Assembly: GCF_044324785.1 (NCBI RefSeq)
Contig: NZ_CP172127.1
Origin: Escherichia coli
Lineage (GTDB): Bacteria > Pseudomonadota > Gammaproteobacteria > Enterobacterales > Enterobacteriaceae
Strand: one strand, 5' to 3'
Length of the DNA: 64,000 bases
A program made the translations under genes and the position numbers. Each line of letters opens with the position of its first letter. The stretch's first letter is position 1. The notes below the pieces were generated by a model. That model saw nothing but the letters and a program-made list of their open reading frames with translations. It did not search any database and had not been told where the DNA came from. This document shows, piece after piece, positions 45,454-64,000 of this stretch.

Positions 45454-45690
45454 ATGAAAACTGATCATCATCGTTGTTTTTGTTGCAATAGTAGAATACG
45501 CGTATTTATTCCTCCATCTCTATTAATAACGGCAATAAACTGTTCACTTCACTGATATTTAAAATATACATCCTTTTCAAGCTGTTCAGCGGCGTAAGAA
45601 AAAGTATTAATTATGAATTCGACGATTTAACCATTTCTGGCTGATTGGTAATCATCTGTGATTAATGCTGGTCTATTGATTACGCCAGCA
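45454..45690 (+). pseudogene. degenerate paralogous copy of the ykgR ... rpmJ2 3' end ... terminator locus
   Basis: 45457-45573 aligns with 26155-26270 (about 90 percent identity by eye). 45581-45690 aligns with 26961-27070 (about 70-75 percent). The ykgR-like frame has lost 29 nt after ATGAAA. Confidence 0.7.
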
Positions 45691-47390: not shown

Positions 47391-47652
47391 TAGTAGAAAT
47401 ATTTAAACCAGTGTAGGTTCAGGGATACGCCACAGCAAGAAATAGTTTACTTATTCCTCATTTTGTCTACTTAAAATTGACATTGAGAAAAAAATACAAA
47501 CTTACCTACATTCAGGCAAAGTGCGACAAATAGACTCGGTCGGTTTAAAGAGAACGTGTAACATAGATGCAAATCGAATAGACATTGTTGCCAGCCGTTC
47601 CAAGGTTGTGGGGCGCTGCATGGCCTGAGACGTGATAAATACAGGGAACACA

Positions 47653-50600
47653 ATGAAATTCACTGAAGATACCCGAGTAAAAATCCCCGTCATCCTCCAC
47701 CTGATACGGCTGGGCTACCACTACCTGTCCCTTAAAGAACAACGCTGGGACAAAGAAACCAATATCTTCCCTGACCTCTTCACCGCTGCGATTGGCAGAA
47801 TAAATCCCGGACTTGTGCCAGACGACATCGGACGCCTGTTAAAAGACCTCACGCTGCTTCTCGACAACGATGATCTGGGCCGCGCCTTCTTCGAAAAACT
47901 CAGTGACCGTTCCGGTATCAAACTGATCGACTTTGATAACTTCAACAACAACAGTTTCCATGTCGTCACCGAACTGACCTGCGAAAACGGTGATGAAGAA
48001 TTCCGCCCGGACATCACGCTGCTGATCAACGGCATGCCGCTAATCTTTATCGAAGTGAAAAAACCCAACAATCGGGAAGGCATCGTCGCAGAACGCAACC
48101 GCATCAACGAACGCTTTAAAAACCCCAAATTCAAACGCTTCGCCAACATCACCCAGTTCATGATCTTCTCCAATAACATGGAGTATGACGACAGCGACCC
48201 GGAGCCGATTCAAGGGGCATTCTACGCCAGCAGCTCTTACAGCAACCCGGTATTCAACTACTTCCGCGAAGAAGAACTCTTCAACCTGACCAACTTACTG
48301 AAACCGCTGTCAGAAGAAACCGAAATCGCCGTCCTGAAAGACAACAACCTGGAAGTGATCCGCACCAACCCGGAATTTCAGACCAACAAAGATCACAACC
48401 GCCCGACAAACCGCCTCTGCACCGCGCTGTTGAGCCGGGATCGGCTGGCATTTATCCTGCGCTATGCGCTGGTGTATGTAGCCGAACCGGGCGGCATCCA
48501 AAAACACATCATGCGCTACCCGCAGCTCTTCGCCACCAAAGCGATTGAGCGCAAACTGAACGCTGGCGTGAAAAAAGGCATTATCTGGCACACCCAGGGC
48601 AGTGGGAAAACCGCATTGGCATACTACAACGTGCGCTTCCTGACAGATTACTTCCAGAATCAGCAGGTGATCCCGAAATTCTACTTTATTGTCGATCGTC
48701 TTGATCTGCTCCAGCAGGCGCAGCGTGAATTCACCGCCCGTGGCTTAATCGTTCACCTTATCGACTCCCGCGAAGCCTTCACCCGCGATATCAAAGCGAC
48801 GCAGGCGCTGCACAACCACCACGGCAAAGCGGAAATCACCGTCGTCAACATCCAGAAATTCCGCGATGACCCGGATGTCGTCACCACCAAAGACTACGAC
48901 ATCAACATCCAACGCGTGTACTTCCTCGATGAAGTCCACCGCAGCTACAACCCCAAAGGGAGCTTCCTGGCGAATTTAAGCCAGTCGGACACCAACGCCA
49001 TCAAAATTGGCCTGACCGGTACGCCTCTGCTGGGCACAGACTACAACTCCCGCGACCTCTTCGGCGACTACATCCACAAATACTACTACAACGCCTCCAT
49101 TGCCGACGGCTACACGCTGCGCCTGATCCGTGAAGAGATCGCCACCAACTACCGGATGATCCTGCAACAGGCGCTAAAAGACGTAGAAGTCAGAATGGGC
49201 GATGTGGATCGCAAAGACATCTACGCCCATCCCAGTTTCGTCAAACCGATGCTGAACTACATCGTCACCGACTTTGCCAAAAGCCGGGGCGCACTGAATG
49301 ATGACACCATCGGCGGCATGGTGATTTGCGACAGCTCAGAACAGGCCAAGCAGATGTTTGAGATATTCAACACTGACTACGCCGAATCGCCCACCGCTGC
49401 CGATGACGTCGCCGAAGAAATGCCGGTATTACAGGCCGCAGAGCCTGCCGCCGTTTACCAGATCCACGCCAAAGAAACGCGGAAAATCAAACGCGCCGCC
49501 CTGATCCTGCACGACGTCGGCAGCAAGCAGGAGCGCAAAGAATGGGTGGATCAATTCAAAGCGGGCGAGATTGACCTGCTGTTCGTCTACAACATGTTGC
49601 TCACGGGCTTTGACGCCAAACGGCTAAAAAAACTCTACCTCGGGCGGGTGATCAGAAAGCACAACCTGCTCCAGGCGCTGACCCGCGTCAACCGAACCTA
49701 CAACCACTTCCGCTACGGCTATGTGGTGGACTTCGCCGACATCCGCCAGGAATTTGACGCCACCAACAAAGCCTACTTCGAAGAGCTACAGGCTGAACTG
49801 GGCGATGAAATGGAGCATTACTCCCGCCTGTTCAAATCAGCGGATGAGATTCGCGAAGAAATCGAACATATCAAAGACGTTCTGTTTAGCTTCGATACCG
49901 AAAACGCGGAAATCTTCACTGACCAGATAAACCAGATCCATGACCGGGAAACCGCGCTGGTACTGAAAAACGCGCTGGCCGACGCCCGCAGCCTGTACAA
50001 CCTGATTCGCCTCCAGGGCAACACTGAGTTTCTCCAGGCGCTGGATTTCAACAAACTCAACATCCTTTACCGCGAAGCCAGCCGCCGCCTCGACTTACTC
50101 AACCTGAAGGCGGATCTGGAACAGGGTGTTGACCTCTCCGGCCTGCTGAACCGGGCGCTGGAAGAGGTGATCTTTGAATTCCACAAAGTGGGCGAAGAAG
50201 AGCTGGTACTGGCCGACGAGCTGAAAGAGACGCTGCGCCGCACCCGCGAAGCGCTGGCCGCCAACTTCGACCAGCAGGACCCGCAGTTCGTCAGCCTGAA
50301 AGACGAACTGGAGCGTCTGTTTAAGAAAAAGAAACTCAGCGAAGTCACCCAGCAAGAAATGGTTGCGAATATCGGCACACTCAATAAAATTCATGGCCGC
50401 ATCAAAGAGCTAAACCGCCAAAATAACCTGCTGCGCCAGAAATACCGTGGCGACGTGAAATACGCGCGTACCCACAAACGCCTGCGCGAGCGCGGCGGCC
50501 TGAGCGAGCCGGAGCGTAAAATCTTCGAAGCACTGCTTGGCGTTAAGCTGGATGCGGATGAAAAAGTGCTGAATAACAGCCAGATACTGAACAACGAAAG

Positions 50601-50751
50601 CTATTTTGAGCGGCAGATTGTGTCATGTGTACTCGATCACTTTGAACAACAGCAGCACATCACCCTGAGTGCGAAAGCGGCTGGCGACATCAACCGCCTG
50701 ATTGTGGCGGAATACCTGAACGAATTTAATACCGGAGCACGTACGTGGTAG
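47653..50751 (+). CDS. hsdR: type I restriction enzyme R subunit HsdR
   Basis: N-terminal PD-(D/E)xK nuclease motif (RPDITLLINGMPLIFIEVKK), and helicase motifs GSGKT and DEVH. Start at ATG 47653 (MKFTEDT). Confidence 0.9.
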   Translation: MKFTEDTRVKIPVILHLIRLGYHYLSLKEQRWDKETNIFPDLFTAAIGRINPGLVPDDIGRLLKDLTLLLDNDDLGRAFFEKLSDRSGIKLIDFDNFNNNSFHVVTELTCENGDEEFRPDITLLINGMPLIFIEVKKPNNREGIVAERNRINERFKNPKFKRFANITQFMIFSNNMEYDDSDPEPIQGAFYASSSYSNPVFNYFREEELFNLTNLLKPLSEETEIAVLKDNNLEVIRTNPEFQTNKDHNRPTNRLCTALLSRDRLAFILRYALVYVAEPGGIQKHIMRYPQLFATKAIERKLNAGVKKGIIWHTQGSGKTALAYYNVRFLTDYFQNQQVIPKFYFIVDRLDLLQQAQREFTARGLIVHLIDSREAFTRDIKATQALHNHHGKAEITVVNIQKFRDDPDVVTTKDYDINIQRVYFLDEVHRSYNPKGSFLANLSQSDTNAIKIGLTGTPLLGTDYNSRDLFGDYIHKYYYNASIADGYTLRLIREEIATNYRMILQQALKDVEVRMGDVDRKDIYAHPSFVKPMLNYIVTDFAKSRGALNDDTIGGMVICDSSEQAKQMFEIFNTDYAESPTAADDVAEEMPVLQAAEPAAVYQIHAKETRKIKRAALILHDVGSKQERKEWVDQFKAGEIDLLFVYNMLLTGFDAKRLKKLYLGRVIRKHNLLQALTRVNRTYNHFRYGYVVDFADIRQEFDATNKAYFEELQAELGDEMEHYSRLFKSADEIREEIEHIKDVLFSFDTENAEIFTDQINQIHDRETALVLKNALADARSLYNLIRLQGNTEFLQALDFNKLNILYREASRRLDLLNLKADLEQGVDLSGLLNRALEEVIFEFHKVGEEELVLADELKETLRRTREALAANFDQQDPQFVSLKDELERLFKKKKLSEVTQQEMVANIGTLNKIHGRIKELNRQNNLLRQKYRGDVKYARTHKRLRERGGLSEPERKIFEALLGVKLDADEKVLNNSQILNNESYFERQIVSCVLDHFEQQQHITLSAKAAGDINRLIVAEYLNEFNTGARTW

Positions 50752-50909
50752 AACTGTAATTTAGAGATAAAACCAAAACCCTGATCGACAGCCTGAAAAG
50801 CATCTGTGCGAACTACGGCCTGGGCAACGACGGTAACGAATTCAAAATTATCACTCAGGCATTCCTGTACAAATTCCTGAACGACAAATTCGCCTTTGAA
50901 GCCAAAAAG

Positions 50910-52382
50910 GTGGATAAAAGCATCGCCAGCGCCGAAAAATGGGAAGTCGCGCTCAATCAGATGAGCGAAGAACAGCGGGATAAACTGCAACTGAAGATGA
51001 GCGCCGACACTGCGCGTCTGAAGCCGCATCACTTCATTCAGTATTTATACAACCGTCAAAATGAGGCCAATTTCGCCACCACCTTTGACGACACCCTGAT
51101 GGACATCGCCGCCACCAACAACGACGTCTTCGCGGTCAAAACTGACGGCGGCGCGAAAGTGGTGCTGTTTGAGCGCCTCAGCCAGTACATCGCCGACGAA
51201 TCAAGGCGCGACGACTTCTGCCGCGCCATTATCAACAAACTGGCCGATTTCAGCTTCGAGCGCATCTTCACGCAGAAATTCGACTTCTACGCCACTATCT
51301 TTGAATACCTGATCAAAGACTACAACAGCAACTCCGGCGGCAAATACGCGGAATACTATACGCCCCACGCCGTGGCGCGCATCATGGCGGAAATCCTGGT
51401 GCCGAAAGCACAACAGGGCGTAGTGCGCAACGTAAGCTGTTACGACCCGTCCGCCGGTTCCGGCACCTTACTGATGAACGTGGCGCACGCCATCGGGGAA
51501 GATCGTTGCAGCATCTTCGCGCAGGACATCTCGCAGAAATCCTCCAGCCTGCTGCGCCTGAACCTGATCCTCAACAATCTGGTGCATTCGATCCCCAACG
51601 TGATTCAGGGCAACACCATTCTGCACCCGTTCCACAAGGACGGCAGCGCGCTGAAACGCTTTGACTATATCGTCTCTAACCCGCCGTTTAAGATGGATTT
51701 CAGCGATTTCCGCGACGATTTGGATAGCAAGGAAAACCAGCAACGTTTCTTTGCCGGGATACCAAAAATCAAAGCCAAAGCCAGGGACAAAATGGAAATT
51801 TACCAGTTGTTCCTGCAACACATCATTTTCTCGCTGAAACCGGATGGTAAGGCGGCGGTCGTGGTGCCGACCGGGTTTATCACCGCGCAGTCGGGCATTG
51901 ATAAAGGGATTCGCGAACATCTGGTGAAAAACAAGATGCTGGCGGGTGTGGTTTCCATGCCGTCGAATATCTTCGCCACCACCGGCACTAACGTATCGAT
52001 CCTGTTTATTGACGCCAGCAACAAAGAGAAAGTGGTGCTGATCGACGCCTCGAATTTAGGTGAAAAGGTCAAAGACGGCAAAAACCAGAAAACGGTGCTG
52101 ACCGAAGAAGAAGAGCAGCGCATCTGCGAAGTGTTCAACAACAAGTGGAGCGAAGAGGATTTCTCGGTGGTGGTCAGCTATGACGAGATCGCCGGGAAAA
52201 ATTACTCGTTCAGCGCCGGGCAGTATTTCGATGTGAAAATTGAATACACCGATATGACGCCGGAACAGTTTGCCGCGAAGATGAACGGGTTTACGGAGAA
52301 TCTGGAGAGTTTGTTTAGCCAGTCGCGCGAGCTGGAGGTGGAGATTAAAAAGCAGATGGCGGGGCTGAATTTCCATGGTTAA
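50910..52382 (+). CDS. hsdM: type I R-M methyltransferase subunit HsdM (start codon problematic, see findings)
   Basis: AdoMet motif DPSAGSGTLL and catalytic NPPF. The reading frame is open and HsdM-N-like from 50760, but the first canonical start is GTG 50910. Confidence 0.8.
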   Translation: MDKSIASAEKWEVALNQMSEEQRDKLQLKMSADTARLKPHHFIQYLYNRQNEANFATTFDDTLMDIAATNNDVFAVKTDGGAKVVLFERLSQYIADESRRDDFCRAIINKLADFSFERIFTQKFDFYATIFEYLIKDYNSNSGGKYAEYYTPHAVARIMAEILVPKAQQGVVRNVSCYDPSAGSGTLLMNVAHAIGEDRCSIFAQDISQKSSSLLRLNLILNNLVHSIPNVIQGNTILHPFHKDGSALKRFDYIVSNPPFKMDFSDFRDDLDSKENQQRFFAGIPKIKAKARDKMEIYQLFLQHIIFSLKPDGKAAVVVPTGFITAQSGIDKGIREHLVKNKMLAGVVSMPSNIFATTGTNVSILFIDASNKEKVVLIDASNLGEKVKDGKNQKTVLTEEEEQRICEVFNNKWSEEDFSVVVSYDEIAGKNYSFSAGQYFDVKIEYTDMTPEQFAAKMNGFTENLESLFSQSRELEVEIKKQMAGLNFHG

Positions 52383-53493
52383 AACTATTGGTGATGCTTG
52401 TAATATTAGTACAGGTAAACTTGATGCAAACCAGGCTGTAAAAGGTGGTGATTATCCGTTTTTTACGTGCGCAGAGTTCCCTGAACAAATCGATCATTAT
52501 GCATTTGACGGCGATGTGGTTCTTATTGCTGGCAATAATGCAAGAGGAAACTTTCACGTAAGCAGGTATCAAGGGAAATTTAATGCTTACCAGCGAACCT
52601 ATGTGCTTACAGCCAAACATGGTTATGATATTGATTATATTTACTATGCCTTAAGACTTGAATTAAAGCGATTGCGAGAAAAATCTCAAGGCTCGCAAAC
52701 AAAGTTTCTGACAATGCCGATTTTGACCAGTATATCGCTAGGAAACCTAGTCGAGACTGAACAATCGACAGTTTCAAGAGTATTAAAAATACTGGATAAA
52801 AAAATCGCTCTCAACAATCGTATCAACGCCGAGCTGGAAGCGATGGCGAAAACACTGTATGACTACTGGTTTGTACAGTTTGATTTCCCTGATGCCAACG
52901 GAAAACCGTATAAAACCTCCGGCGGGAAGATGGTGTACAACGCCACGCTGAAACGGGAAATTCCGGCGGGGTGGAATATTAAAAATCTTGGCGATATAGC
53001 GGAACTATATCAGCCTAAGACCATTTCAGGTAACGATTTTATTGATGATGGTGAATATCTTGTATATGGAGCCAACGGTATTGTAGGAAGATTCAATAAA
53101 TATAACCATGAAGAACCTGTCGTTACAATCACCTGCCGTGGAAATACGTGCGGCAATATAAACGTCACACGACCATATTCATGGATTACAGGGAATGCAA
53201 TGGTGGTTAAGCCAAAGTTTAACTATATTTCACCTTATTATATTTATAATTTATTGTCGATATCGGAAGTTGATAAAGTCATTACTGGCTCTGCTCAACC
53301 TCAAATTACGCGAGCAAACCTAGCTCCACTTAAGGTTGTTGAACCAGCAGAGGACATTACGCAAAAATACTCAAAGTCTGTTGATGCTTTTTTTAAAAAG
53401 CATATCTCAATATTAGATGAAAATGATAATTTATTAAAACTCCGCGACTGGCTCCTCCCCCTGCTTATGAACGGACAGGTCACGGTCAAATAA
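52375..53493 (+). CDS. hsdS: type I R-M specificity subunit HsdS (two target-recognition domains)
   Basis: Its ATG overlaps the hsdM stop. It has two low-GC TRDs separated by the conserved spacer LDKKIALNNRINAELEAMAKTLYDYWFVQFDFP, and a conserved C-terminal LRDWLLPLLMNGQV. Confidence 0.85.
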   Translation: MVKTIGDACNISTGKLDANQAVKGGDYPFFTCAEFPEQIDHYAFDGDVVLIAGNNARGNFHVSRYQGKFNAYQRTYVLTAKHGYDIDYIYYALRLELKRLREKSQGSQTKFLTMPILTSISLGNLVETEQSTVSRVLKILDKKIALNNRINAELEAMAKTLYDYWFVQFDFPDANGKPYKTSGGKMVYNATLKREIPAGWNIKNLGDIAELYQPKTISGNDFIDDGEYLVYGANGIVGRFNKYNHEEPVVTITCRGNTCGNINVTRPYSWITGNAMVVKPKFNYISPYYIYNLLSISEVDKVITGSAQPQITRANLAPLKVVEPAEDITQKYSKSVDAFFKKHISILDENDNLLKLRDWLLPLLMNGQVTVK

Positions 53494-53632
53494 TCCCCGC
53501 CGTGTTTTGCGAGGCGCATTCCAGATCCACATTGCGCCGCGCTCACCGCTGTAAAACCGCTTGCCGTTCATAACCGATCGAAGTATCTTTCTCCCGCGCC
53601 TGCAAAATCAGGCGTCGGGATTAGCCTCCTGA

Positions 53633-53645
53633 AAACCGTTACAGG
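53633..53645 (+). promoter_or_regulatory. upstream target repeat (seqA-like) of the antisense RNA
   Basis: AAACCGTTACAGG; its CGTTACAGG is complementary to RNA loop nt 53739-53747. A GATTAGCCTC repeat (53619-53628) precedes it. Confidence 0.55.
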
Positions 53646-53700
53646 CGACACTTGACGCACCAGCGTCTTTTTTGTGTCGTGCGTTCGGCTACACCTCAAT

Positions 53701-53782
53701 GGCGGGCCGGGCGGGGGCGTCGCAAGACGCGCCGGTTTCCTGTAACGCCGGTAAGGCTAACCCCGTCCGGTTCCGCCACCCA
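53701..53782 (+). ncRNA. tRNA-like antisense regulatory RNA of the phage P1 C4 / P4 CI type
   Basis: Hand-folded structure. The long terminal stem pairs 53701-53716 with 53761-53777 (one bulge). A GCAA-tetraloop hairpin spans 53717-53730. A second hairpin (53731-53752) has a 12-nt loop, UUUCCUGUAACG. The 3' tail is ACCCA. The loop is complementary to both flanking repeats. Confidence 0.6.
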
Positions 53783-53813
53783 TGAGATTAGCCTCTCTAG
53801 TGGCGGACATAAT

Positions 53814-53829
53814 AAACCGTTACAGGAGA
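53814..53829 (+). promoter_or_regulatory. downstream target repeat (seqC-like) overlapping the SD of the 156-aa ORF
   Basis: CGTTACAGGAGA (53818-53829) can pair with all 12 loop nucleotides (one G-U pair). It contains AGGAG (53824-53828), 7 nt before ATG 53836. Confidence 0.55.
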
Positions 53830-53835
53830 TGCCCT

Positions 53836-54306
53836 ATGGCTACAATCCTCACCCCTGACTGCGATTTACTCGATCTGTTATCCGTTCCCTTCAATGCCAC
53901 CACGGATTTTACTGTCCTTGCCGATTACTGCACCCGCTTCGCCGAAACCCTGATAGAAACCGACGATCCCGCGCTGCGGCTGGCGCTGAGCGGACGGCTT
54001 CACGCGGCTCTTGCGCTACTGCAACCCACACTGCATGACCCCATCCCGCCGCATCTTACCGAAAGCCTGACCGTTAATACCCTTCCCGCCACACCAGAGC
54101 ACTTTATTTCCGAACCCGATTCCTTGTGCGAATACTGCCTCGCACTGCTCCAGCTTCTGCTGGAACGCCCGGCGGAGCCAAAAATGGAGCAAACCCTGAC
54201 CGGGCTGCTGTGTGAGCTGGTCTGGAATTTCACGGAAGGACTCAAATCCCCGCGCTGGCTGCGTACCGCCGACGGCGTAAAATTTATCAGTGAGGTGGCC
54301 GCATGA
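53836..54306 (+). CDS. hypothetical acidic Leu-rich protein, 156 aa, no recognisable domain
   Basis: ATG with a good SD. It starts [15 protein letters not shown]... No TM segment or signal peptide. Its stop overlaps the start of the next (broken) gene. Confidence 0.6.
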
Positions 54307-54449
54307 TGCAACAGGACTGGCATTCCACCGACATTATCGCCACGCTGAAAAAGCGGGGAACGTCTCTGGCGGCGCAGAGAAAAACTCATTGCGGACGCGC
54401 TGTAAATATCGTCAGAAATCATCTGGCCTTCAAGGTACTTTGATAGCAA
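54303..54449 (+). pseudogene. Ner/Nlp-like small DNA-binding protein, internally deleted and interrupted
   Basis: The N-terminus [24 protein letters not shown] resembles Ner/Nlp. The characteristic C-terminus (S)EI(I)WPSRYF appears only in another frame, after a stop. Confidence 0.55.
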
Positions 54450-54451
54450 AG

Positions 54452-54655
54452 GCAAGCAGGCTGGTTCAGTCCCGTGTTTCTCTTCTTGCATTTTCAGAAA
54501 TGGGAGGCTGGGAGTCTATCGAAATGGTTCGTCGATATGCTCACCTCGCACCTAATCACCTTACCGAACACGCACGGCAAATAGACTCGATCCTGAACCC
54601 ATCGGTCCCAAATTTGTCCCAGTCAAAAAATAAGGAAGGTACTAATGATGTGTAA
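54452..54655 (+). pseudogene. C-terminal ~67 codons of a lambdoid (P22-type) tyrosine integrase
   Basis: [37 protein letters not shown] contains the catalytic-Tyr box (RYAHL). There is no N-terminal or core domain upstream. It ends 14 nt before the att core. Confidence 0.75.
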
Positions 54656-54669
54656 CTTATTGATTTAAA

Positions 54670-54715
54670 TGGTGCCGATAATAGGAGTCGAACCTACGAC
54701 CTTCGCATTACGAAT
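54670..54715 (-). other. 46-nt 3' fragment of tRNA-Thr (thrW): attachment-site core, not a functional tRNA
   Basis: The reverse complement reads ATTCGTAATGCGAAGGTCGTAGGTTCGACTCCTATTATCGGCACCA, which is the anticodon loop, T-arm, acceptor 3' strand and CCA as I recall thrW. The 5' half is absent. Confidence 0.75.
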
Positions 54716-55044
54716 CTGTAGAACCAATCATAACTATCTGTTTTAGCAAGCATTAACCGCATTCACCAAGCAATAGTTGATGGCACAAACAGAAAGTTGA
54801 TGCATGATGTTGTCATGTGTATGTCACAAATACGGCACAACGATCTTCAAACATGTAGCCACCCAGCATAGAAGAGCACAAATCCTTGCAATCCAGTGCA
54901 AAGCTTTGTGTACCTTAGTTTTGTCTCATAGGTAATTCTGCTTTAACTGCGATGCAGGAATCTGTCACCAGACGCACGTCTCGTTGTTTTATGGTTTTCC
55001 GTTCATGATTAATATGTTAGCTTGTCAAAGTTTGTGTTTAAGAT

Positions 55045-55716
55045 ATGGTGATTGATGCAATGTTAAGCGTTCAGATGACTCCACAAGCAAAAGTTAGCTT
55101 CGAGGAGCAATGTTTTTTTCATGCTTCATGTCTTGTTGTTGCCCCAATAAATGTTGGAGCATTCTCCTACTTTGGCGCTAATTGTATGCTCGGCGGCTTT
55201 ACGATGGGTAGATTTTGTTCAGTTGCTCCAGGAGTAAAAATTGGCCTTGGCGAGCATGAAACTGGGTATTTTTCTACGCATCCTTTTTTCTTTGGCTCAA
55301 AAAATGGTTTTAAAATCCCTGATGGTATAGGAATGCAACGCGACCTCTCTCAACAGAAGCATGGTATACCAAGAATTGGTCATGACGTATGGATAGGTGC
55401 AAATGCGGTTATCAGGCGAGGTATAACTATTGGTACTGGCGCTGTTATTGCTGCTGGCGCTATTGTCACCAAAAATGTCGATCCATATTCAATCGTAGGT
55501 GGCGTTTCTGCAAAACACCTAGGGTACAGATTTGAGGAATCAATCATCAAAGAGTTACTGGATAGCCAATGGTGGGAATATGATTTAAGCTCATTTATTG
55601 GGATTGATACAAGGACACCGACGACTTTTTTAGAGCAGTTTAATGCTGTAAAAGATAAAAAGAAGGCATCTTATAAGAGATTTACAATTCTTCCATCCGG
55701 TGAAATTGTTGAATAG
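55045..55716 (+). CDS. XAT-class hexapeptide-repeat acetyltransferase (CatB/Vat-like)
   Basis: [66 protein letters not shown] and the C-terminal [11 protein letters not shown] fit the xenobiotic acetyltransferase pattern. The start codon is uncertain (weak SD). Confidence 0.75.
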
Positions 55717-55735
55717 CGCATCCCTGCGCTATATT

Positions 55736-58105
55736 TTAAATAAACATAAGAATAAACATCAGAAGTTCTTCGTATCTGATACCATACTGATAGCCAGCAG
55801 GTTTAATAATAACCTGCCTTCCTGTGTAATATTCCTCGTCGTACCACTCTCCTGTTTCATTGTTTTTAACACTCCTAATCAATACCTCTGGAGCATAAAT
55901 ATCATCCCATTCATCATAACACCAGAACGCATAGTTATTAGGGTCAAGACCGTATTTTCTGAGAATATTACCTACAGTTTGTGCACCAACGCCGAAATGA
56001 ATCCGAGCGCCATCACTCTTGATCTTTACTGCATCTTTAAATTTAAACCTCCAGATATTTTCCTTTATTTCAAGCGCAGCAAGACGCTCTGATTCTGTTG
56101 TTTTCTCGTCAGCCTCAATACGCAATTTCAGCTCTTCATTCGACGTGTTGATACTGCCAGTACCAGCGTATACCTGTGACCATCGAAATGCTGATGTTCC
56201 GTTTGAGTTAACATTATCAACAGTTGGTTTTATAAGGCCAGAAAAATGAGTTTCAGGTGTATTAATATATGTATATGCACCTGCTGTACTACGAGTCCTT
56301 AACTCAAAGCTGTCTATATCAACACCAGTCCTACGAATTATAAGGAAGTTATTTCCTGCGGAACCAGTATCGGTTTGAGTGCTAACAGACAATCCGTTTC
56401 GTGTATCAATACGTATATTCTTCCCGTTCTCCAGCGAAGCAGAATTATGTAGATACAGCGAGTTGTCAGTGTAGAGATTGTGTTTACCTACATTGCTAAA
56501 TGTATAAGTATTGCTTGTGTTATCACTGTTCCTATGGAATTGCTGAAGAGTGTAGGCAGAAGATGCTCCGTATCCATCACAATGGAAATTTCTGCACAGC
56601 TGCAAATCGAATAACAATACGGTGTCAGCATTAATGCTCACATTATTAAAGCATGTTGCAAAGTTGGCACCATACTGTGAATTGGAATCGCCAATCTGTG
56701 CGCACACATCAAGCAAACCAAAAGTTACATTGGTAAAGTTATTTGCATCACCGGCGTCAAGAACAATCCCTTTCTTAGTCCCTGAATACCCTCTGGCAGT
56801 GCCGATCTCAACTCCCTGGAATGAACACACGCGAGCACGACTAAGCTTAAGACCAACCCATTCCAGACCATGATCGTAACCTTTTGCTGCGCGGTGAATA
56901 AACATACCATTCATGATGAGAAGGAATCTGTTATCAAGCCGTACTGGTTCAAGTTGGGCATTAATACCAACATTTGTGCATATACATTCACCATAAGCAT
57001 AACGATTCGTTTCAAATATACGATCATCAGCGTCGTAAATGCCTCGTAATGCCTTGGCGGCATCAATATTAAGCAATGTAAAATATGTCTTCTGCTTAAT
57101 TTCAAAAAAATTTGCAACATTATGCGTTGTGATATCACTCACACGCATTGATAAAATCCCCTCTTCTGGAGCGGTGCGAATGAATCCATCAAGGAACTGT
57201 TCATTATAACTTTTGGCTATCTGATAACATCCAACAGCATCAATGCGTTCGATTGTGAACTGCCAACTATCACCACAGTTAAAAGACCATCTCCAGCCGT
57301 ATTTCTGAGCGAATTCATCATATTCAACATTTGCAGGTTCAGAACAGAAAGATAAAAATCTAAATGTTGGTTTTGGCCTTAGATGGTTAATCCCGGAACC
57401 TCTTGGGGTATATATGGCATTATCTCCATTCCCACCTTTTGTTTTAACTGTAAGGTGACTTAAACCAAATTCAATATCATATTTAGTTGGTGCGGCGAAA
57501 ACAAAGCCGTCTTTTGGTGATGTGGTATTGTCAAACACAATAACCGTTTCACCCTGCCCATCACCGCACATATTTACTGGTGGTATATTAACGGGGCCAG
57601 TCAAACTATATGTTCCAGTTGGCACATATAGTTTTCCACCCTCTCCAATAGCATTTGCCGCTGCAATAAATGCCGCCGTATCATCGTTAACACCGTCACC
57701 TTTCGCCCCATAATGCTGTGGCGTAATTAACAGCATACGGTCAGAAAAAATCTCTGTCCTAAGTTGATCAGGATCGTATTTTAATACATTTGGAAAATAA
57801 AACTGCTGAGTGCCATATGCATCATATACAGCCATAGAATGGCCTTGCACGGTAACGAATTTGGCAATCTGTCCGTTATATACCGGATAACCAGCAGCGT
57901 TAATAATGATTGGTTGAGAAACAGGAACGTGAGAACCGTCTTCGTTCTCTACATAAACCGGAATCTGGTTTTCAGGATTTACCGGGTCAGTGTCAATTTT
58001 ACCGATATAAATTTTTCCATTAGCATTTGCTTTAAACGAGCGAGCTAAAGTGAATAACTGACTTGGTTGTGAAACAACAACATTGGCATTTATTGAATCT
58101 GTCAT
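55736..58105 (-). CDS. tailspike: P22 gp9-type head-binding domain + pectate-lyase-like beta-helix depolymerase + C-terminal intramolecular chaperone (peptidase S74-like) domain
   Basis: The N-terminus [18 protein letters not shown]...[26 protein letters not shown]...[13 protein letters not shown] is nearly the P22 gp9 N-domain. [19 protein letters not shown] is a beta-helix signature. The C-terminal part has NTSNEELK (Ser-x4-Lys) and a chaperone-like tail. Confidence 0.9.
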
Positions 58106-58163
58106 TTAATTTACTCCAGATACAAGGAATCGCCGCAGCATGGCTACGGTGAATTTTGGGCAT

Positions 58164-58186
58164 AAAAAACCCAGCCGAAGCTGGGT
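58164..58186 (-). terminator. rho-independent terminator between ant and the tailspike gene
   Basis: On the minus strand: ACCCAGC-TTCG-GCTGGGT followed by TTTTTT. Confidence 0.8.
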
Positions 58187-58204
58187 CGTTGCGTTGGTTA
58201 TCTG

Positions 58205-59083
58205 TCAGTAGTTATGTACTGAAGGAGGTAATTCTTTATTCTTAAGTCTCATCCATGCGGAAATATTCGTTGGTCCGTCTGGCTCATTAATATCAACATC
58301 TCGTGTGTGATTGATTAAAACGTCTCTCGCCATTCCGATAACATACGAGAATTCATGACCGTAGTCGTAGCATCTGCCGGAATAGTTCGATTGAATTTGT
58401 TTCAGCGCCGGATACAGTTCGCGGAATAATGCCTGTGAGCGGTTGGCATAATCCCATAACCATACAAGGCTGTTTGCTTCTTTTGCAGAAAGCTCGTTGG
58501 TTTTCTTCTCTTGTTTGCCAATGAACTCACCTTCAAGCACTACCCTGTGGATGTACTCTACGGCCAGCGGGATTTGTTCAATTGAAAGTTCATCAATGCT
58601 GTCAATACCAAAACGCTGATGAACCATATTGTATGCATCGTCATAGCGAAGTCCTTTCTTTCCTACCAGCATGTTTACTGCATCGCGTAGCGGTGTTCTT
58701 TCCTCAACAGTGGTTTTCTTTCCTTTTACATACTCGCCATGTTTGCGAATTGAAGGCAGAACTTCTGCTGTTACCCACTTGCGGAATTTGTGCGGGACTG
58801 AACCTTTATTGACTGCATCGCGGCAGCGCAGAACCAATGTATACATACCTGATTCGCTCACAATGCTTAGATTCTGCTCACCACCAAGGGTGTAACTTAA
58901 AGTTACTCCCTTTTCATCGTCATCAAGTGCAGTAAGCGCCTTGCGTGAGTTAGTCAAATCTAAAGCATCACAAACATCTTTAGCTACAAACCACGGCTCA
59001 CCGCACTTGTTGATGACGCGGATTTCACTGTCGCCGAATTTGAAGATGGTGAAATCGTTTTGTGCCTTTGCTATACTTTTCAT
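58205..59083 (-). CDS. ant: antirepressor Ant (Bro-N + KilA-C type)
   Basis: [28 protein letters not shown]...[11 protein letters not shown] is a Bro-N domain. It is immediately downstream of arc, as in P22 immI. Confidence 0.9.
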
Positions 59084-59151
59084 GTCAATATTTCCTAATC
59101 CGATTTGTTGATGCCGAAGCCCTGACTGTTACAGCAGTTGGGGCTTCAACT
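59084..59151 (+). ncRNA. possible sar-type antisense RNA covering the arc-ant intercistronic region
   Basis: The 68-nt arc-ant spacer is the size recalled for P22 sar RNA. It contains a hairpin, gaagccc...gggcttc. Promoter and ends were not verified. Confidence 0.3.
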
Positions 59152-59313
59152 TTACGCACCAATGCGCCCTTCCTTCTTAAAGCTTTCCATTACTCGCTGA
59201 TAAATCTCAGAATTAACAGACCGACCATTTTCTTCCGCCACCTTGCGTACCAAATCCAATACTTCTTTAGGCCACCGCAAATTGAACTGTGGCATTTTGC
59301 TCATTCCTTTCAT
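59152..59313 (-). CDS. arc: Arc repressor
   Basis: MKGMSKMPQFNLRWPKEVLDLVRKVAEENGRSVNSEIYQRVMESFKKEGRIGA (53 aa). It is essentially P22 Arc as I recall it. Confidence 0.95.
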   Translation of the reverse strand: MKGMSKMPQFNLRWPKEVLDLVRKVAEENGRSVNSEIYQRVMESFKKEGRIGA

Positions 59314-59329
59314 GTTCACCTCACAATAT

Positions 59330-59346
59330 AGGTCCACGGTGGACCT
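59330..59346. promoter_or_regulatory. Mnt operator
   Basis: Perfect 17-bp palindrome AGGTCCACGGTGGACCT between arc and mnt, identical to the recalled P22 Omnt. Confidence 0.85.
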
Positions 59347-59355
59347 ATTGAGAAT

Positions 59356-59376
59356 ATAGTAGAGTGCTTCTATCAT
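59356..59376. promoter_or_regulatory. Arc operator
   Basis: ATAGTAGAGTGCTTCTATCAT is the reverse complement of ATGATAGAAGCACTCTACTAT, the recalled 21-bp P22 Arc operator. Confidence 0.85.
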
Positions 59377-59403
59377 GTCAATACACTAACTTGGAGTGAT
59401 GGC

Positions 59404-59658
59404 ATGGCTAGAGATGATCCGCACTTTAACTTCCGTATGCCTTTGGAAGTAAGAGAAAAATTGAAATTAAGAGCCGAGGCTAACGGAAGGTCAATGAACT
59501 CTGAGTTATTACAAATCGTTCAGGATGCACTATCAAAACCATCACCGATTACAGGATATCGCGACGAAGCTGAACGCTTGGCTGATCAGCAGGCTGAGCA
59601 GTTCAAGGCTATAGTGTTTGAGACACTTAAAAAGATTTATGAAAAGGATTTGAAATGA
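59404..59658 (+). CDS. mnt: Mnt repressor
   Basis: MARDDPHFNFRMPLEVREKLKLRAEANGRSMNSELLQIVQDAL... is a ribbon-helix-helix protein close to P22 Mnt. It is divergent from arc. Confidence 0.95.
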   Translation: MARDDPHFNFRMPLEVREKLKLRAEANGRSMNSELLQIVQDALSKPSPITGYRDEAERLADQQAEQFKAIVFETLKKIYEKDLK

Positions 59659-59709
59659 GATTTCTATCACTGTTCTTGTTAGCAGTTGTCTCTTCTTCCA
59701 GTGCTGAGC

Positions 59710-60766
59710 GGCTTTGTTGAATAAATCGAACTTTTGCTGAGTTGAAGGATCAGATCACGTATCTTCCCGACAACGCAGACCGTTCCGTGGCAAAGCAAAA
59801 GTTCAAAATCACCAACTGGCCCACCTACAATAAAGCCCTCATCAACCGTGGCTCCATAACTTTCTGGCTGGATGATGAAGCTATTCAGGCCTGGTATGAG
59901 TCAGCAACACCTTCTTCACGAGGCAGACCTCAGCGCTATTCTGACCTTGCCATCACTACTGTGCTGGTCATTAAACGCGTATTCAGGCTGACCCTGCGGG
60001 CTGCGCAGGGCTTTATTGATTCCATTTTTTCTCTGATGAACGTTCCGCTACGCTGCCCGGATTACAGCTGTGTCAGCAGGCGGGCAAAGTCGGTTAATGT
60101 CAGTTTCAAAACGCCCACCCGGGGTGAAATCGCACACCTGGTAATTGATTCCACCGGGCTGAAGGTCTTCGGTGAAGGCGAGTGGAAAGTCAAAAAGCAT
60201 GGCCAGGAACGCCGCCGTATCTGGCGTAAGCTGCATCTCGCCGTTGACAGTAAAACACATGAAATCATCTGCGCTGACCTGTCGCTGAACAACGTTACGG
60301 ACTCAGAGGCCTTCCCCGGGTTAATCCGGCAAACCCACCGGAAAATCAGGTCAGCCGCCGCCGATGGCGCTTACGATACCCGGCTATGTCACGATGAACT
60401 GCGGCGTAAGAAAATCAGCGCGCTTATCCCTCCCCGAAAAGGTGCGGGTTACTGGCCCGGTGAATATGCAGACCGTAACCGTGCAGTGGCTAATCAGCGA
60501 ATGACCGGGAGTAATGCGCGGTGGAAATGGACAACAGATTACAACCGTCGCTCGATAGCGGAAACGGCGATGTACCGGGTAAAACAGCTGTTCGGGGGTT
60601 CACTGACGCTGCGTGACTACGATGGTCAGGTTGCGGAGGCTATGGCCCTGGTACGAGCGCTGAACAAAATGACGAAAGCAGGTATGCCTGAAAGCGTGCG
60701 TATTGCCTGAAAACACAACCCGCTACGGGGGAGACTTACCCGAAATCTGATTTATTCAACAAAGCC
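59710..60766 (+). mobile_element. IS903/IS102-type insertion sequence (IS5 family), 1057 bp
   Basis: Perfect 18-bp terminal inverted repeats GGCTTTGTTGAATAAATC, flanked by a 9-bp direct duplication GTGCTGAGC (59701-59709 and 60767-60775). Confidence 0.95.
59787..60710 (+). CDS. IS903-type transposase (DDE)
   Basis: A GTG start giving (M)AKQKFKITNWPTYNKALINRGS yields 307 aa, as recalled for IS903 Tnp. The track ORF begins 15 codons earlier at TTG. Confidence 0.9.
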   Translation: MAKQKFKITNWPTYNKALINRGSITFWLDDEAIQAWYESATPSSRGRPQRYSDLAITTVLVIKRVFRLTLRAAQGFIDSIFSLMNVPLRCPDYSCVSRRAKSVNVSFKTPTRGEIAHLVIDSTGLKVFGEGEWKVKKHGQERRRIWRKLHLAVDSKTHEIICADLSLNNVTDSEAFPGLIRQTHRKIRSAAADGAYDTRLCHDELRRKKISALIPPRKGAGYWPGEYADRNRAVANQRMTGSNARWKWTTDYNRRSIAETAMYRVKQLFGGSLTLRDYDGQVAEAMALVRALNKMTKAGMPESVRIA

Positions 60767-61071
60767 GTGCTGAGCTGCGCGAGCTTCAAACGGGTAATGA
60801 CCTTCTTTACAACATTCAACAAGGTAAAAAGGGTGATGATTTTTCATCGCTTTACATTACTGGATATTTGCGCGGAGTAACTGACTCATTGATACTAATT
60901 GGTTCTCTATGTCCTCCTGATGGCGTTGACATGTATCAATACACCGATATCGTTGAGAAATCTCTAAACAAAAACCCAGAATCAAGAAATGAGAGTGCAG
61001 TTATACTAACCGCCCTAGCAGTAGGAAAAACATTTCCGTGCAAAAAGAATCAATAACAATAAGGGCTTAAA

Positions 61072-61461
61072 ATGAAATTGATTATAGCAATGGCTTTCCT
61101 TGTCTTCTCGTTTTCTGTCTCAGCAGAGTGCTGGGTCGTTGGAGATATGCACGGAATAAGCTATTCAGAACGAAATAATTTTCAACCGGAAGAAGATGGT
61201 TTTAGTGGAACATTCATCATTAAGACAAACGGTGAAGATGCCAGTATCACATATTCTGGGACGGATGCGGGCGGCATGGCTTACAAAGCATTGTCTAAAA
61301 ACTCCATCCTAGGAATTGGCGCGAATGGAGAAACTCAACGCGTTATAGACTCATGGGTAATACATCCTACTGGAACAGTTTTAATGTCAAAAACCATTTC
61401 CGGTTATGGAAATATGGATTCAACCAAAGCTTTTGTTGGAAAAGTAAAAAGAAAATGTTAA
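61072..61461 (+). CDS. hypothetical secreted protein, 129 aa
   Basis: Signal peptide MKLIIAMAFLVFSFSVSA. Same strand as, and 15 nt downstream of, the interrupted gene. No recognisable domain. Confidence 0.6.
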   Translation: MKLIIAMAFLVFSFSVSAECWVVGDMHGISYSERNNFQPEEDGFSGTFIIKTNGEDASITYSGTDAGGMAYKALSKNSILGIGANGETQRVIDSWVIHPTGTVLMSKTISGYGNMDSTKAFVGKVKRKC

Positions 61462-61482
61462 CGATAGGATTATGGCCCTACA

Positions 61483-61668
61483 TCAACAGCTTCCGCGTCC
61501 CTGAGTAATTCTGTTGCGGATTTGCTTCTTGCGGTGGTTTAAGCTGGAGAGCTTGGCTTCTGCTTCTGATATTTGCGCATCAAGATCTTTAAGCTCAAGA
61601 TCTGAAAGTCGCTGGTCAAGCAGGGTTTGGTTCAACTCAATATTGTTCAGACGTTCTTCTATGGTCAT
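61483..61668 (-). CDS. hypothetical 61-aa coiled-coil protein
   Basis: ATG 61668 lies 8 nt after AGGA. It encodes MTIEERLNNIELNQTLLDQRLSDLELKDLDAQISEAEAKLSSLNHRKKQIRNRI, which has heptad character. Confidence 0.45.
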   Translation of the reverse strand: MTIEERLNNIELNQTLLDQRLSDLELKDLDAQISEAEAKLSSLNHRKKQIRNRITQGRGSC

Positions 61669-61699
61669 AACTTTCATCCTATAACTATTTGGAATCAAA

Positions 61700-61882
61700 A
61701 TGAAAAATATATTAATTGGTTTCGTTTTTGGTGCAGCCTGCGCTGCCAGCATTAGCGTTATCGCCGCCCAGATTGTTGGTGGTAACTCATATCTAATGGG
61801 CTATGACGTCATGATAGATGGAGAGGTTGTTTGCTCAGACCCTTATGTATGGACGTCGACAAAAGAAATAGAATGTGACTAA
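61700..61882 (+). CDS. hypothetical 60-aa protein with an N-terminal signal/anchor and conserved-looking Cys pair
   Basis: [23 protein letters not shown]... followed by a terminator. Weak SD. Confidence 0.45.
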
Positions 61883-61883
61883 T

Positions 61884-61908
61884 ACCAGCCTGATGGCTGG
61901 TTAATTTT
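61884..61908 (+). terminator. rho-independent terminator
   Basis: accagcc-tgat-ggctggt followed by taattttt. Confidence 0.7.
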
Positions 61909-61992
61909 TGCATTTACCTGGGCCATATTGACTACTTATAAAATGAGATCAATATTTAATCGCCCAATAACGGGTGTATGTTGAGGTATATC

Positions 61993-62172
61993 ATGGCGAA
62001 AAAACCAGGTGAAAATACAGGGAAAAACGGCGGAATATACCAGGAAGTTGGTCCACGCGGTGGTAAGAAGGACAATTTTGCCACCGTCAGGGACAACGAA
62101 AGACTTCCGCCAACAACAAAGCCAGGTCATGGCTGGGTATTGGATAAGCGAACTCCAGACAGCAAAAAGTAA
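61993..62172 (+). CDS. YjzC-like small protein (59 aa)
   Basis: MAKKPGENTGKNGGIYQEVGPRGG...LPPTTKPGHGW fits the YjzC-family pattern as recalled. GAGG SD lies 6 nt upstream. Confidence 0.6.
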   Translation: MAKKPGENTGKNGGIYQEVGPRGGKKDNFATVRDNERLPPTTKPGHGWVLDKRTPDSKK

Positions 62173-62177
62173 TAATC

Positions 62178-62200
62178 AAGCCGGGTCACTCCGGCTTTTT
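62178..62200. terminator. hairpin terminator shared by the convergent genes
   Basis: aagccgg-gtcact-ccggctt followed by ttt. It overlaps the last codons of the minus-strand gene. Confidence 0.6.
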
Positions 62201-62551
62201 GATATGTCGCTCGCAGAACTCAACAAGCCTGCTCATTAAGTAGCAGTAAGTCTCGTTGGCTCTTCCTGGTTCAACATCAACACCTACCCTTGAGCAGATA
62301 TCGAATGCCATGTGAGCGCACTCATGGGCAATAGTAGATAGTTTGCCATTGAACACGCCTATCACATGCAAAACACCATTCTCGCTACTCATTGTATGAG
62401 ACGCTCCGTTGGCGTCCGAGTCATGCACGTCAACGCCAAGTTTTTGATGCAGGCGTTGCCATTCTGGAAAGTCTCTACAAAACACAATGGTACCGCTCTC
62501 AAAGAGCGGTACGAGCATCTTTGGTACGTTTCCAATGTTAACTTTTTTCAT
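62186..62551 (-). CDS. small HExxH protein (121 aa), possible minimal ImmA/IrrE-like metallopeptidase
   Basis: TIAHECAHMAFD...EPGRANETYCYL: an HExxH motif plus a downstream E/AN segment reminiscent of COG2856 proteins. The family assignment is tentative. Confidence 0.55.
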   Translation of the reverse strand: MKKVNIGNVPKMLVPLFESGTIVFCRDFPEWQRLHQKLGVDVHDSDANGASHTMSSENGVLHVIGVFNGKLSTIAHECAHMAFDICSRVGVDVEPGRANETYCYLMSRLVEFCERHIKKPE

Positions 62552-62581
62552 GGTATCCTGCGCAAAACTAAGGAGGTTGGT

Positions 62582-62770
62582 GTGAAGAAAAAATTTGTAA
62601 ACGTTGCAAAGTGCGCAATTTTTATATTTTTTATGACCTTTTACGGATTTAGTGCCGGAGAAGGTTTCGATCGTGATGCCAATGCATTCAGTTTCTTTTG
62701 TCTGTCTATAGTGGTCATAATTGTATGGGTGGAATTAAAGCAAACATTGTTTCATGTGCTAGGGAAATAA
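62582..62770 (+). CDS. hypothetical 62-aa two-TM membrane peptide
   Basis: GTG 62582 lies 5 nt after AGGAGG. It encodes (M)KKKFVNVAKCAIFIFFMTFYGF...FSFFCLSIVVIIVWV. It is divergent from the HExxH gene, with 30 nt between the starts. Confidence 0.5.
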   Translation: MKKKFVNVAKCAIFIFFMTFYGFSAGEGFDRDANAFSFFCLSIVVIIVWVELKQTLFHVLGK

Positions 62771-62787
62771 CCATCCATGGCATTTAG

Positions 62788-63999
62788 TCACTGCTGTGTT
62801 GCCTCAGTGGCAAGCAGCGGTCTGATGGCATTCGCAGCGTTATTCAGCGCTCTTTCATAGGCTGGTGTTCCAGCTTTAGTGTTTGCCAGACGTAAGAGAG
62901 CATTCCTTGCTGCTTTGGACTCATACAAGCGCATGATTGCACCGAAACCAGCCTCAAGTCCCAGTGATACACCAAGGGTTGCAGTTGCGCCAATCGTTCT
63001 AATCCTGTTAGCTTGCGATTGTCCTGTCTGTGTTACTACATTTGCGGCGTCCGACCTTGCTGTTTGCTGTAGAACTTCATGAAGAGCATCAAGCTCTTTC
63101 ATGTGTCTCCCACTGAATATCGTGTTATAGATCTGACCGTCAGATTGCGACTTCAACTTATTTAACTCGGTAAGAAATTTTGTTGGCGAGTCTCCTGCTT
63201 TTTCTGCAATCTTGCTGATATAAGCAGCACGCATAGCGTTCTTTCCATCTTCACTAAGAGCTGGCCATATCCTCTTAATATCTGATGGTTTTCTGCTGAA
63301 TACAACGCTGTTTATTAGCTCTGGAGTAAACTCTTTTTTAGCTTTGTTGAGATTATTCGCAATCCTTTTATTAAGAACCTTATTGAAGACGTTGGAGTAG
63401 TCAGAGTTTGCTTTGACGTATCTGGCGGCCTCTCCAGCCCCCAAATACCGCGCTGCGTTATTCCTCAAATCCGCCCCCATTGCCCTCTCCACGGCATCAG
63501 TTGCGGCTTTCGCGCTATTAGGAAAAACCATGGCATCTCCCTGAATACTTTCCCTCAAGGCTGACCGCAACTCTCTCAATAGACCAAAATCTATATCTGG
63601 TTTAGCAAGTTCTTCTCGCAAATCGGATAACCCGCGAATCAAATCCTTATTTGCCACTTTCCCAAGCCTATTAGCTCTGGTAAGTACGTTGTCGATAACC
63701 TTAATAGATTTTGATGTGTCAACTGGTGTGTCTCCCATTTTGGCTGTAATGTCTTCAATAACGCTTCCGGCCGAATCCTTCCTTGACTTCAGAGAGCCAT
63801 ACAGATCGTCAACAACAACTGATGGGCTATATTCACCATATTTCTCAAGCTGTTTTTTAACTAGCTGACTTCTTTTTGCATACTGCTCAGCTCGCTTTGA
63901 GCCTGTTCCCAGCAAAGCCCCCTCAGCATCCTGAGTAAGACCACGAGTGAAAGCATTTTTCGGCGGGATTACATCAGATGTCATTGGTGTCACGCCCAT
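62788..63999 (-). CDS. phage DNA-ejection (injection) protein, gp16-position homolog; start at or near the window edge
   Basis: 403-aa Ala/Lys-rich ORF on the same strand as the tailspike, occupying the position of the last ejection gene in P22-like genomes. The start could be ATG 63999, ATG 63984, or outside the window. Confidence 0.6.
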
Positions 64000-64000
64000 C

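Follow-up and report, generated by a model that had tools for sequence, protein, structure and literature searches.

Phages of the P22 type classically convert the O antigen of their host, and P22 itself carries gtrABC in the slot between att and the tailspike gene. For capsules the described counterpart is NeuO of the prophage CUS-3, whose O-acetylation shields K1 cells from K1 phage (PMC13001214). O-acetylation also distinguishes capsule types from one another: Escherichia coli K13, K20 and K23, whose Kdo (3-deoxy-D-manno-oct-2-ulosonic acid)-ribofuranose backbone is built by a single enzyme, KrkA, differ by O-acetylation alone, and region 2 of K13 consists of KrkA plus an acetyltransferase called 'vatD' (PMC12887879). 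The E. coli capsule maps of 2026 contain some K serotypes that differ in acetylation alone, with the responsible genes probably outside the kps locus, and mention no prophage candidate for such a modifier (PMC13171606). Here we describe an acetyltransferase gene at 55060-55716 (+ strand; 218 residues) of a 64,000-nucleotide stretch of the E. coli contig NZ_CP172127.1, hereafter the window. The gene lies in the conversion slot of a P22-like prophage, and its product is a hexapeptide acetyltransferase of predicted XAT (xenobiotic acetyltransferase) fold. It is probably an O-acetyltransferase of the K107 capsule that serves lysogenic conversion, in a role like that of NeuO and from a different lineage. 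K107, a K type defined only recently, belongs to the KrkA-like set and is reported to be linked to invasive disease (2026 kTYPr paper).

An original prediction, made from the letters of the window alone, had placed the gene in an open reading frame at 55045-55716 (+ strand); this frame is present, runs from an ATG at 55045 and encodes 223 residues. A second ATG at 55060 is the start both in homologues and in the PGAP (Prokaryotic Genome Annotation Pipeline) annotation of identical genes, and is likely the start here, giving the 218-residue product. All of the motifs quoted in the prediction are found, among them FCSVAPGV...H... (with 30 further protein letters not shown here) and another of 11 letters. 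Pfam identifies Hexapep repeats only (E = 8e-12), and the best sequence matches in the PDB are CatB, VatA, VatD and PaXAT (E = 1e-19 to 1e-26, residues 53-182). The AF2 (AlphaFold2) model, calculated from 46 relatives, has a pLDDT (predicted local distance difference test) value of 95.6 and consists of coiled short strands; when compared with the PDB by Foldseek, ranks 1-11 are all CatB or VatA and VatD follows at rank 16, with TM-scores (template modelling scores) of 0.5-0.6. H71 (223-residue numbering) aligns with the histidine of the GNQGH motif in 6pu9 and is conserved without exception in sets of 16 and of 46 relatives; by PaXAT and VatD, we take it to be the catalytic residue. Repeats, model and nearest folds bear out the predicted structural class, and by sequence and predicted fold the protein belongs to the soluble XAT-class acetyltransferases with a left-handed beta-helix.

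Within this class it is set apart from both CatB and Vat. Classification by hidden Markov model (HMM), a check suggested with the prediction, gives 96.3 bits against the CatB model NF000490 (curated cut-off 350) and 100.3 bits against the Vat model NF000311 (curated cut-off 300), about one-third of both cut-offs. The best-scoring model is TIGR03308, a phosphonate-metabolism hexapeptide transferase (120.1 bits, cut-off 201.65), and there are no phn genes in the neighbourhood. Similarity to CatB and Vat, at about 29-36% identity, is confined to residues 53-182. The acceptor loop, in which the clade-invariant residues P92, I95, G96 and R99 lie, has an 8-residue insertion relative to CatB. The NeuO structure (3jqy) matches residues 113-157 only (25 bits, E = 1e-4).

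The relatives of the enzyme are found at capsule loci and beside phage receptor-binding genes. Full-length relatives in the protein collection form a small clade (44-66% identity), and the close clade is 54-62% identical over the full or nearly the full length. Eight neighbourhoods were sampled, seven in the protein collection and K155 among the E. coli genomes, and none of the eight is a resistance context. At four of them (L004, L009, L096 and L099, the last also with kdsA and kdsB) the gene sits in kps region 2 beside a large polymerase of 1,141-1,210 residues. The gene arrangement of L009 is that of E. coli K155 (L093), whose in-locus 'CatB-related O-acetyltransferase' is 54% identical to the window's enzyme. 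L097 has the gene beside a 1,192-residue protein without a family match, on a contig with no kps genes. The two remaining neighbourhoods are viral: L006, where the gene adjoins a myovirus tail fibre at the end of a prophage, and L095, an unrelated phage contig on which the relative (56% identity) is convergent with a tailspike gene. The relatives in capsule loci together with that of L097 (L004, K155, L096, L097 and L099) are 54-58% identical to the window's enzyme, L004 being the closest chromosomal one (58%), and those from capsule loci have the same sub-threshold profile against the CatB, Vat and TIGR03308 models. A scan of species-representative genomes gave only distant relatives (at most 43% identity) and no member of the close clade, and the phage genome collection has no genome with this gene, the best match being 46% over part of the protein. 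We found no biochemical characterisation of region-2 acetyltransferases (K13 'vatD', K155 type) in the literature searched.

The partner polymerases match the ribofuranosyltransferase/phosphatase part of Bcs3, and the K155-type polymerase also matches the KpsC/KpsS Kdo-transferase family; judged by these matches, their architecture is KrkA-like. The L004 polymerase comes from another enterobacterium (radA 85.7% identical to that of E. coli), and a search with its gene finds homologues (72.6% nucleotide identity) in 21 of 5,426 complete E. coli genomes. Region 2 of these 21 genomes encodes a 1,169-residue polymerase and a 329-residue alpha/beta-hydrolase/TPR (tetratricopeptide repeat) protein. 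In the lengths of its genes and of the whole cluster, and in the positions of its domains, this locus agrees with K107 of the 2026 kTYPr catalogue (K107_10, 1,169 residues; K107_9, 329 residues), and no hexapeptide acetyltransferase was found in K107 region 2. The K107 polymerase is 70% identical to that of L004 over its full length, such that region 2 of L004 pairs a K107-polymerase ortholog with the closest chromosomal relative of the acetyltransferase. With the KrkA-like K107_10 as its polymerase, the K107 capsule is expected to consist of Kdo and ribofuranose. A ribose-ribitol-phosphate capsule, as in K18, K22 and K100, was considered and rejected: Bcs3 is matched only in its ribofuranosyltransferase/phosphatase part, region 2 contains no CDP-ribitol genes, and the locus matches kTYPr K107 of the KrkA-like Kdo/ribofuranose set. 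K107_9 (L091 15629-16618, 329 residues) has an alpha/beta-hydrolase part at the N terminus and TPR repeats at the C terminus; sequence comparison turned up no informative relatives of it, and a search of solved structures gave TPR matches only.

The acetyltransferase gene itself (at least 99% nucleotide identity) occurs in nine of the 5,426 complete genomes, and all nine carry the K107 locus, being drawn from the 21 K107 genomes (hypergeometric P = 2.6e-23; 2.4e-21 with duplicate assemblies collapsed). The P22-like prophages that bear the tailspike gene are likewise restricted to K107 hosts (all nine genome records, eight strains). These prophages are inserted at different places: thrW in the window, torT/torS in GF4, A10 and AVS0578 and as a remnant in 2018-10-1CC, dacD in LSC52, ybhB/bio in AH21A060, and beside another integrase in TUM9803. 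The neighbouring phage genes also vary between sites. Five or more integration sites indicate several acquisitions, and with the differing phage backbones they rule out clonal descent as the source of the K107 association. In the K107 strain 2018-10-1CC this tailspike type occurs on two P22-like prophages, a torT/torS remnant with the acetyltransferase gene, a truncated tailspike gene and IS1 (L092 8016-9492) and an intact prophage at dacD without the acetyltransferase gene (L094 4083-6449).

The original prediction had offered two readings, an antibiotic-modifying enzyme and one that O-acetylates a polysaccharide and so changes the receptor of the neighbouring tailspike. The comparative evidence, from the relatives in kps loci and phages to the nine K107 hosts, strongly supports the second and sharpens it to the K107 capsule, not the O antigen. 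The fold, the conserved catalytic residue, the family neighbourhoods, the exclusive K107 co-occurrence and the T-tract variation are observations; which sugar is acetylated and at what position, when and where the enzyme acts, how adsorption is affected, and whether there is on/off switching are matters of inference. The prophage-expressed protein would be a cytoplasmic, acetyl-CoA-dependent enzyme with the trimeric left-handed beta-helix of XAT enzymes and, by analogy with them, with H71 as the presumed general base. It would O-acetylate the host group 2 capsule of K107 type, acting on the growing chain at the inner membrane face ahead of export by KpsMT. Acetylation would make the capsule a less suitable substrate or receptor for the tailspike depolymerase domain and for phages of the same specificity; the lysogen would be shielded from superinfection, and the antigenicity of its capsule would be altered.

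The T7 tract that had been claimed near the 5′ end is at 55113-55119 (+ strand), within the codons Cys-Phe-Phe, and is a possible slip site. An alignment of ten alleles (the window and the nine complete-genome ones) contains eight with T7 and two with T6 (GF4 and A10), and the two T6 alleles differ from one another at other nearby sites. In T6 alleles a reading frame begun at 55060 is only 29 codons long. An internal ATG at 55110-55112 (+ strand), preceded by GAGGAG at 55102-55107, is out of frame in T7 and in frame in T6; from this ATG a T6 allele encodes a 201-residue protein with 17 fewer N-terminal residues, which is the form annotated by PGAP and which occurs on 15 contigs from several sources. 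It is presumably ATG 55110 that is used as the start in T6 alleles. Sequencing error is unlikely as the whole cause of T6, given the 15 contigs and the two allelic backgrounds. The window has 13 A/T runs of 7 or more, and the T7 tract is unexceptional among them. The tract may be a switch, an isoform change or a mark of decay. Ten nucleotides past the tract, at 55129 (codon 29 of the 223-residue frame), the window has Cys (TGT) and all nine complete-genome alleles have Gly (GGT); the Cys is a substitution private to the window allele, at a position that is variable among homologues.

The neighbouring gene at 55736-58105 (- strand) encodes a P22-type tailspike of 789 residues, identified by Pfam domains and PDB matches. 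The acetyltransferase gene is convergent with it, as had been stated, across a gap of 19 nt in place of the 20 nt first given. By Pfam, a head-binding domain (residues 1-120) is followed by a beta-helix resembling that of pectate lyases, and the C terminus is an S74 intramolecular chaperone. The beta-helix is predicted to be the receptor-binding/depolymerase domain and to be specific for the K107 capsule. On the L095 contig the receptor-binding part of the tailspike is 60% identical to that of the window, the N-terminal adaptor differs, and acetyltransferase and tailspike keep the convergent arrangement of the window. The acetyltransferase gene and the receptor-binding domain thus probably move jointly as a two-gene cassette. 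The only sequenced phage with a tailspike like this receptor-binding domain is PSK1 (57% identity), and no literature on PSK1 was found. The same receptor-binding domain (97% nucleotide identity) with another N-terminal adaptor occurs in a second type of prophage, which is inserted at yfgI and present in four strains (five genome records); in this type (L010, L106) the tailspike gene at L106 5034-7616 is accompanied by a decayed fragment of the acetyltransferase gene at about L106 4781-4868.

Two kps loci with KrkA-like polymerases encode beta-helix proteins related to the receptor-binding domain. That of L096 (3896-6121; 741 residues) has an S74 chaperone and is 27% identical to the receptor-binding domain over 689 residues (E = 6e-50), and that of K155 (L093 9527-11356; 609 residues) is homologous to it. 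These proteins may have supplied the phage domains, or may act in the capsule pathway itself as self-depolymerases. The two genes of K155 are arranged as in the prophage, converging across a gap of 16 nt; this fits a common origin of the pair and is not proof of it. A bolder scheme, which we regard as fairly unlikely, is that the acetyltransferase and depolymerase domain form a cassette captured jointly from kps region 2, where an acetyltransferase gene and a beta-helix glycanase gene converge beside the polymerase gene as in K155, that the phage thereby has both the key to the K107 capsule and the means of changing the lock, that such prophage modifiers are the 'outside the locus' determinants of K serotypes distinguished by O-acetylation alone, and that T7/T6 changes switch between a full-length and a shortened or absent isoform.

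Several observations weigh against the assignment to K107 lysogenic conversion. The T6 frameshift of some alleles and the K107-type prophage without the acetyltransferase gene show that the gene is dispensable to the phage. XAT-like acetyltransferases are also present within O-antigen clusters. K107_9 may itself modify the capsule polymer. The kps locus of the window's own strain lies outside the window, and the link to K107 comes from the nine complete genomes. Among the hosts of the yfgI-type prophage, NRZ14408 is K107, and three others are not: AR_0085 has the K1 neu locus, EC17CM13 has lost the whole pheV-yghQ region and has no kps locus at pheV, and Br_112_kylling lacks K107 and has its tailspike gene broken by an IS4 element. 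These three may carry old prophages in lineages whose capsule later changed or was lost. With the receptor-binding domain present in such hosts, the K107 specificity of the tailspike is no more than a prediction.

One alternative is that the enzyme O-acetylates another surface glycan (O antigen, lipopolysaccharide core or enterobacterial common antigen) and is linked to K107 only through the adjacent tailspike. The O antigen is the classical target of P22-like phages, and XAT-like 'CatB-related' acetyltransferases are encoded inside the O127 (L116 6611-7264, between wzx and wzy) and O88 (L117 6637-7230) clusters, which makes the XAT-like fold routine for surface-polysaccharide acetylation in E. 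coli. The O-cluster enzymes, however, are only 39-46% identical to the window's, over partial length, whereas the kps/phage clade is 54-62% identical over the full length; moreover, the closest chromosomal relative is paired with the K107-polymerase ortholog, and the K107 hosts are of varied sources with varied prophage sites. We consider modification of a different glycan unlikely.

It is also improbable that the gene is a passenger, acquired from a capsule locus along with the receptor-binding domain and now neutral or decaying, with no role in the lysogen. Such a history would suit the frameshift in two alleles, the decayed remnant that accompanies this receptor-binding domain in prophages at yfgI, the K107-type prophage without the gene, and the presence in kps loci of homologues of the acetyltransferase as well as of the beta-helix protein, whose genes converge in K155. 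Against it, the reading frame is intact with all family-invariant residues in the window and in seven of the nine complete-genome alleles, at 99% nucleotide identity or more and on differing backbones, and even the T6 alleles still encode 201 residues from an in-frame ATG. The pair of acetyltransferase and receptor-binding domain is also kept in the L095 phage, whose pair is only 56-60% identical to that of the window, which argues for its long-term selection.

The remaining alternative, a CatB/Vat-like xenobiotic acetyltransferase that provides prophage-borne resistance to chloramphenicol or streptogramin A, can draw on the nearest solved structures, on the nearest named HMMs (TIGR03308 aside), on the conserved catalytic histidine and on the label 'chloramphenicol acetyltransferase' that the exact protein has in some database records, but it is very improbable, given scores of 96 of 350 (CatB) and 100 of 300 (Vat) bits, the partial similarity (residues 53-182), the insertion in the acceptor loop and the clade-invariant residues of that loop, the same sub-threshold profile in relatives from capsule loci, the lack of a resistance context in any neighbourhood sampled, the intrinsic insensitivity of E. 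coli to streptogramins, and the strict restriction to K107 hosts that it leaves unexplained.

The setting in the window agrees with the position in a P22-like prophage given in the original prediction. Homology to prophage-free E. coli (ETEC4070) stops at about 54716, inside the tRNA-Thr gene thrW, and the prophage starts rightward of this point; the 3′ fragment of thrW at 54671-54716 (- strand; approximate, estimated from the end of the alignment) is the att junction, and no intact tRNA was found in 53000-64000. As chromosomal homology ends inside thrW, the acetyltransferase gene is the first gene inside the att end, and it stands beside the tailspike gene with ant, arc and mnt genes beyond. 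The immI-type region (58205-59658) contains the antirepressor gene ant (58205-59083, - strand; Pfam Bro-N and P22_AR_C) and two Arc/Mnt-family genes (59152-59376, - strand, and 59404-59658, + strand) named from the annotation of matching prophages. Just past these, at 59742-60710, is an insertion-sequence transposase reading frame of 322 residues, which is not present in the matching prophages of other genomes. A genomic island at thrW (45680-54655) lies ahead of the prophage, with an AbiEii/AbiEi toxin-antitoxin pair (45680-47390), the type I restriction-modification genes hsdR/M/S (47632-53493) and an integrase remnant (54290-54655); since island and prophage are both at thrW, there have been two tandem integrations at one tRNA gene.

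The low GC content attributed to the acetyltransferase gene is confirmed at about 0.40 and is the same in the tailspike gene. A GC-rich hairpin at 55713-55732, in the 19-nt gap between the two genes and overlapping the acetyltransferase stop codon, is likely a terminator common to both. Just 5′ of the 55060 start is a weak sigma-70-like match (TTGTCA, 16-nt spacer, TATGGT; 55022-55049, + strand), the sole one in the region. Shuffled sequence yields a mean of 4.5 matches, more than the region itself, so that the match alone is no evidence of a promoter; it was accordingly rejected as no better than chance.

Public records call the exact protein 'chloramphenicol acetyltransferase' or 'CatB-related', and with such misleading names it could be flagged wrongly in resistance screens. 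The enzyme is a concrete candidate for a modifier 'outside the locus', in K107. If the assignment is true, in silico K typing must cover prophage cargo besides the kps locus, and K107-directed tailspikes, phages and capsule vaccines would face acetylated and non-acetylated forms. It would also be, after NeuO/CUS-3, the second natural system for studying how a temperate phage edits its own capsule receptor. The literature searched describes NeuO, the in-locus K13 acetyltransferase and unidentified 'outside the locus' acetyltransferases, and no prophage-borne enzyme of the present kind was found in it.

The enzyme shares features with four described groups. With CatB/PaXAT and VatA/VatD it has in common the fold, the catalytic histidine in an extended loop and a C-terminal helical segment with a WW motif; it differs in the N-terminal 50 or so residues and in the acceptor loop, reaches about one-third of their cut-offs, and occurs in a capsule and phage context whereas theirs is that of resistance elements. 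The region-2 acetyltransferases of Kdo/ribofuranose loci belong to the same XAT-like clade, with the same HMM profile and a KrkA-like partner of about 1,150 residues, although they are encoded inside the kps locus and the window's enzyme on a prophage by the tailspike gene; K13 'vatD' is likened to it by gene description, not by sequence. The gtrABC genes of P22 and the oac-type genes of P22-like phages likewise lie between att and the tailspike gene and also alter the receptor that their own phage uses. They are, however, membrane genes that act on periplasmic O antigen, whereas the window's enzyme is predicted to be cytoplasmic and soluble and would act on a capsule exported by an ABC transporter. 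NeuO of CUS-3 is closest in role: both are soluble hexapeptide acetyltransferases of a P22-like prophage in a group 2 kps host, and the tailspike that accompanies NeuO is a capsule depolymerase, as is predicted here. Both have a 5′ coding sequence of variable length, and for both serological conversion and protection from phage are expected (PMC3046976, PMC13001214). There is no homology between the two past generic hexapeptide coils, the window's enzyme lying in an XAT-like branch; NeuO varies by a heptanucleotide VNTR (variable number tandem repeat) and the window's gene by a T7/T6 homopolymer, and the target of NeuO is polysialic acid, whereas that of the present enzyme would be K107, predicted to be a polymer of Kdo and ribofuranose.

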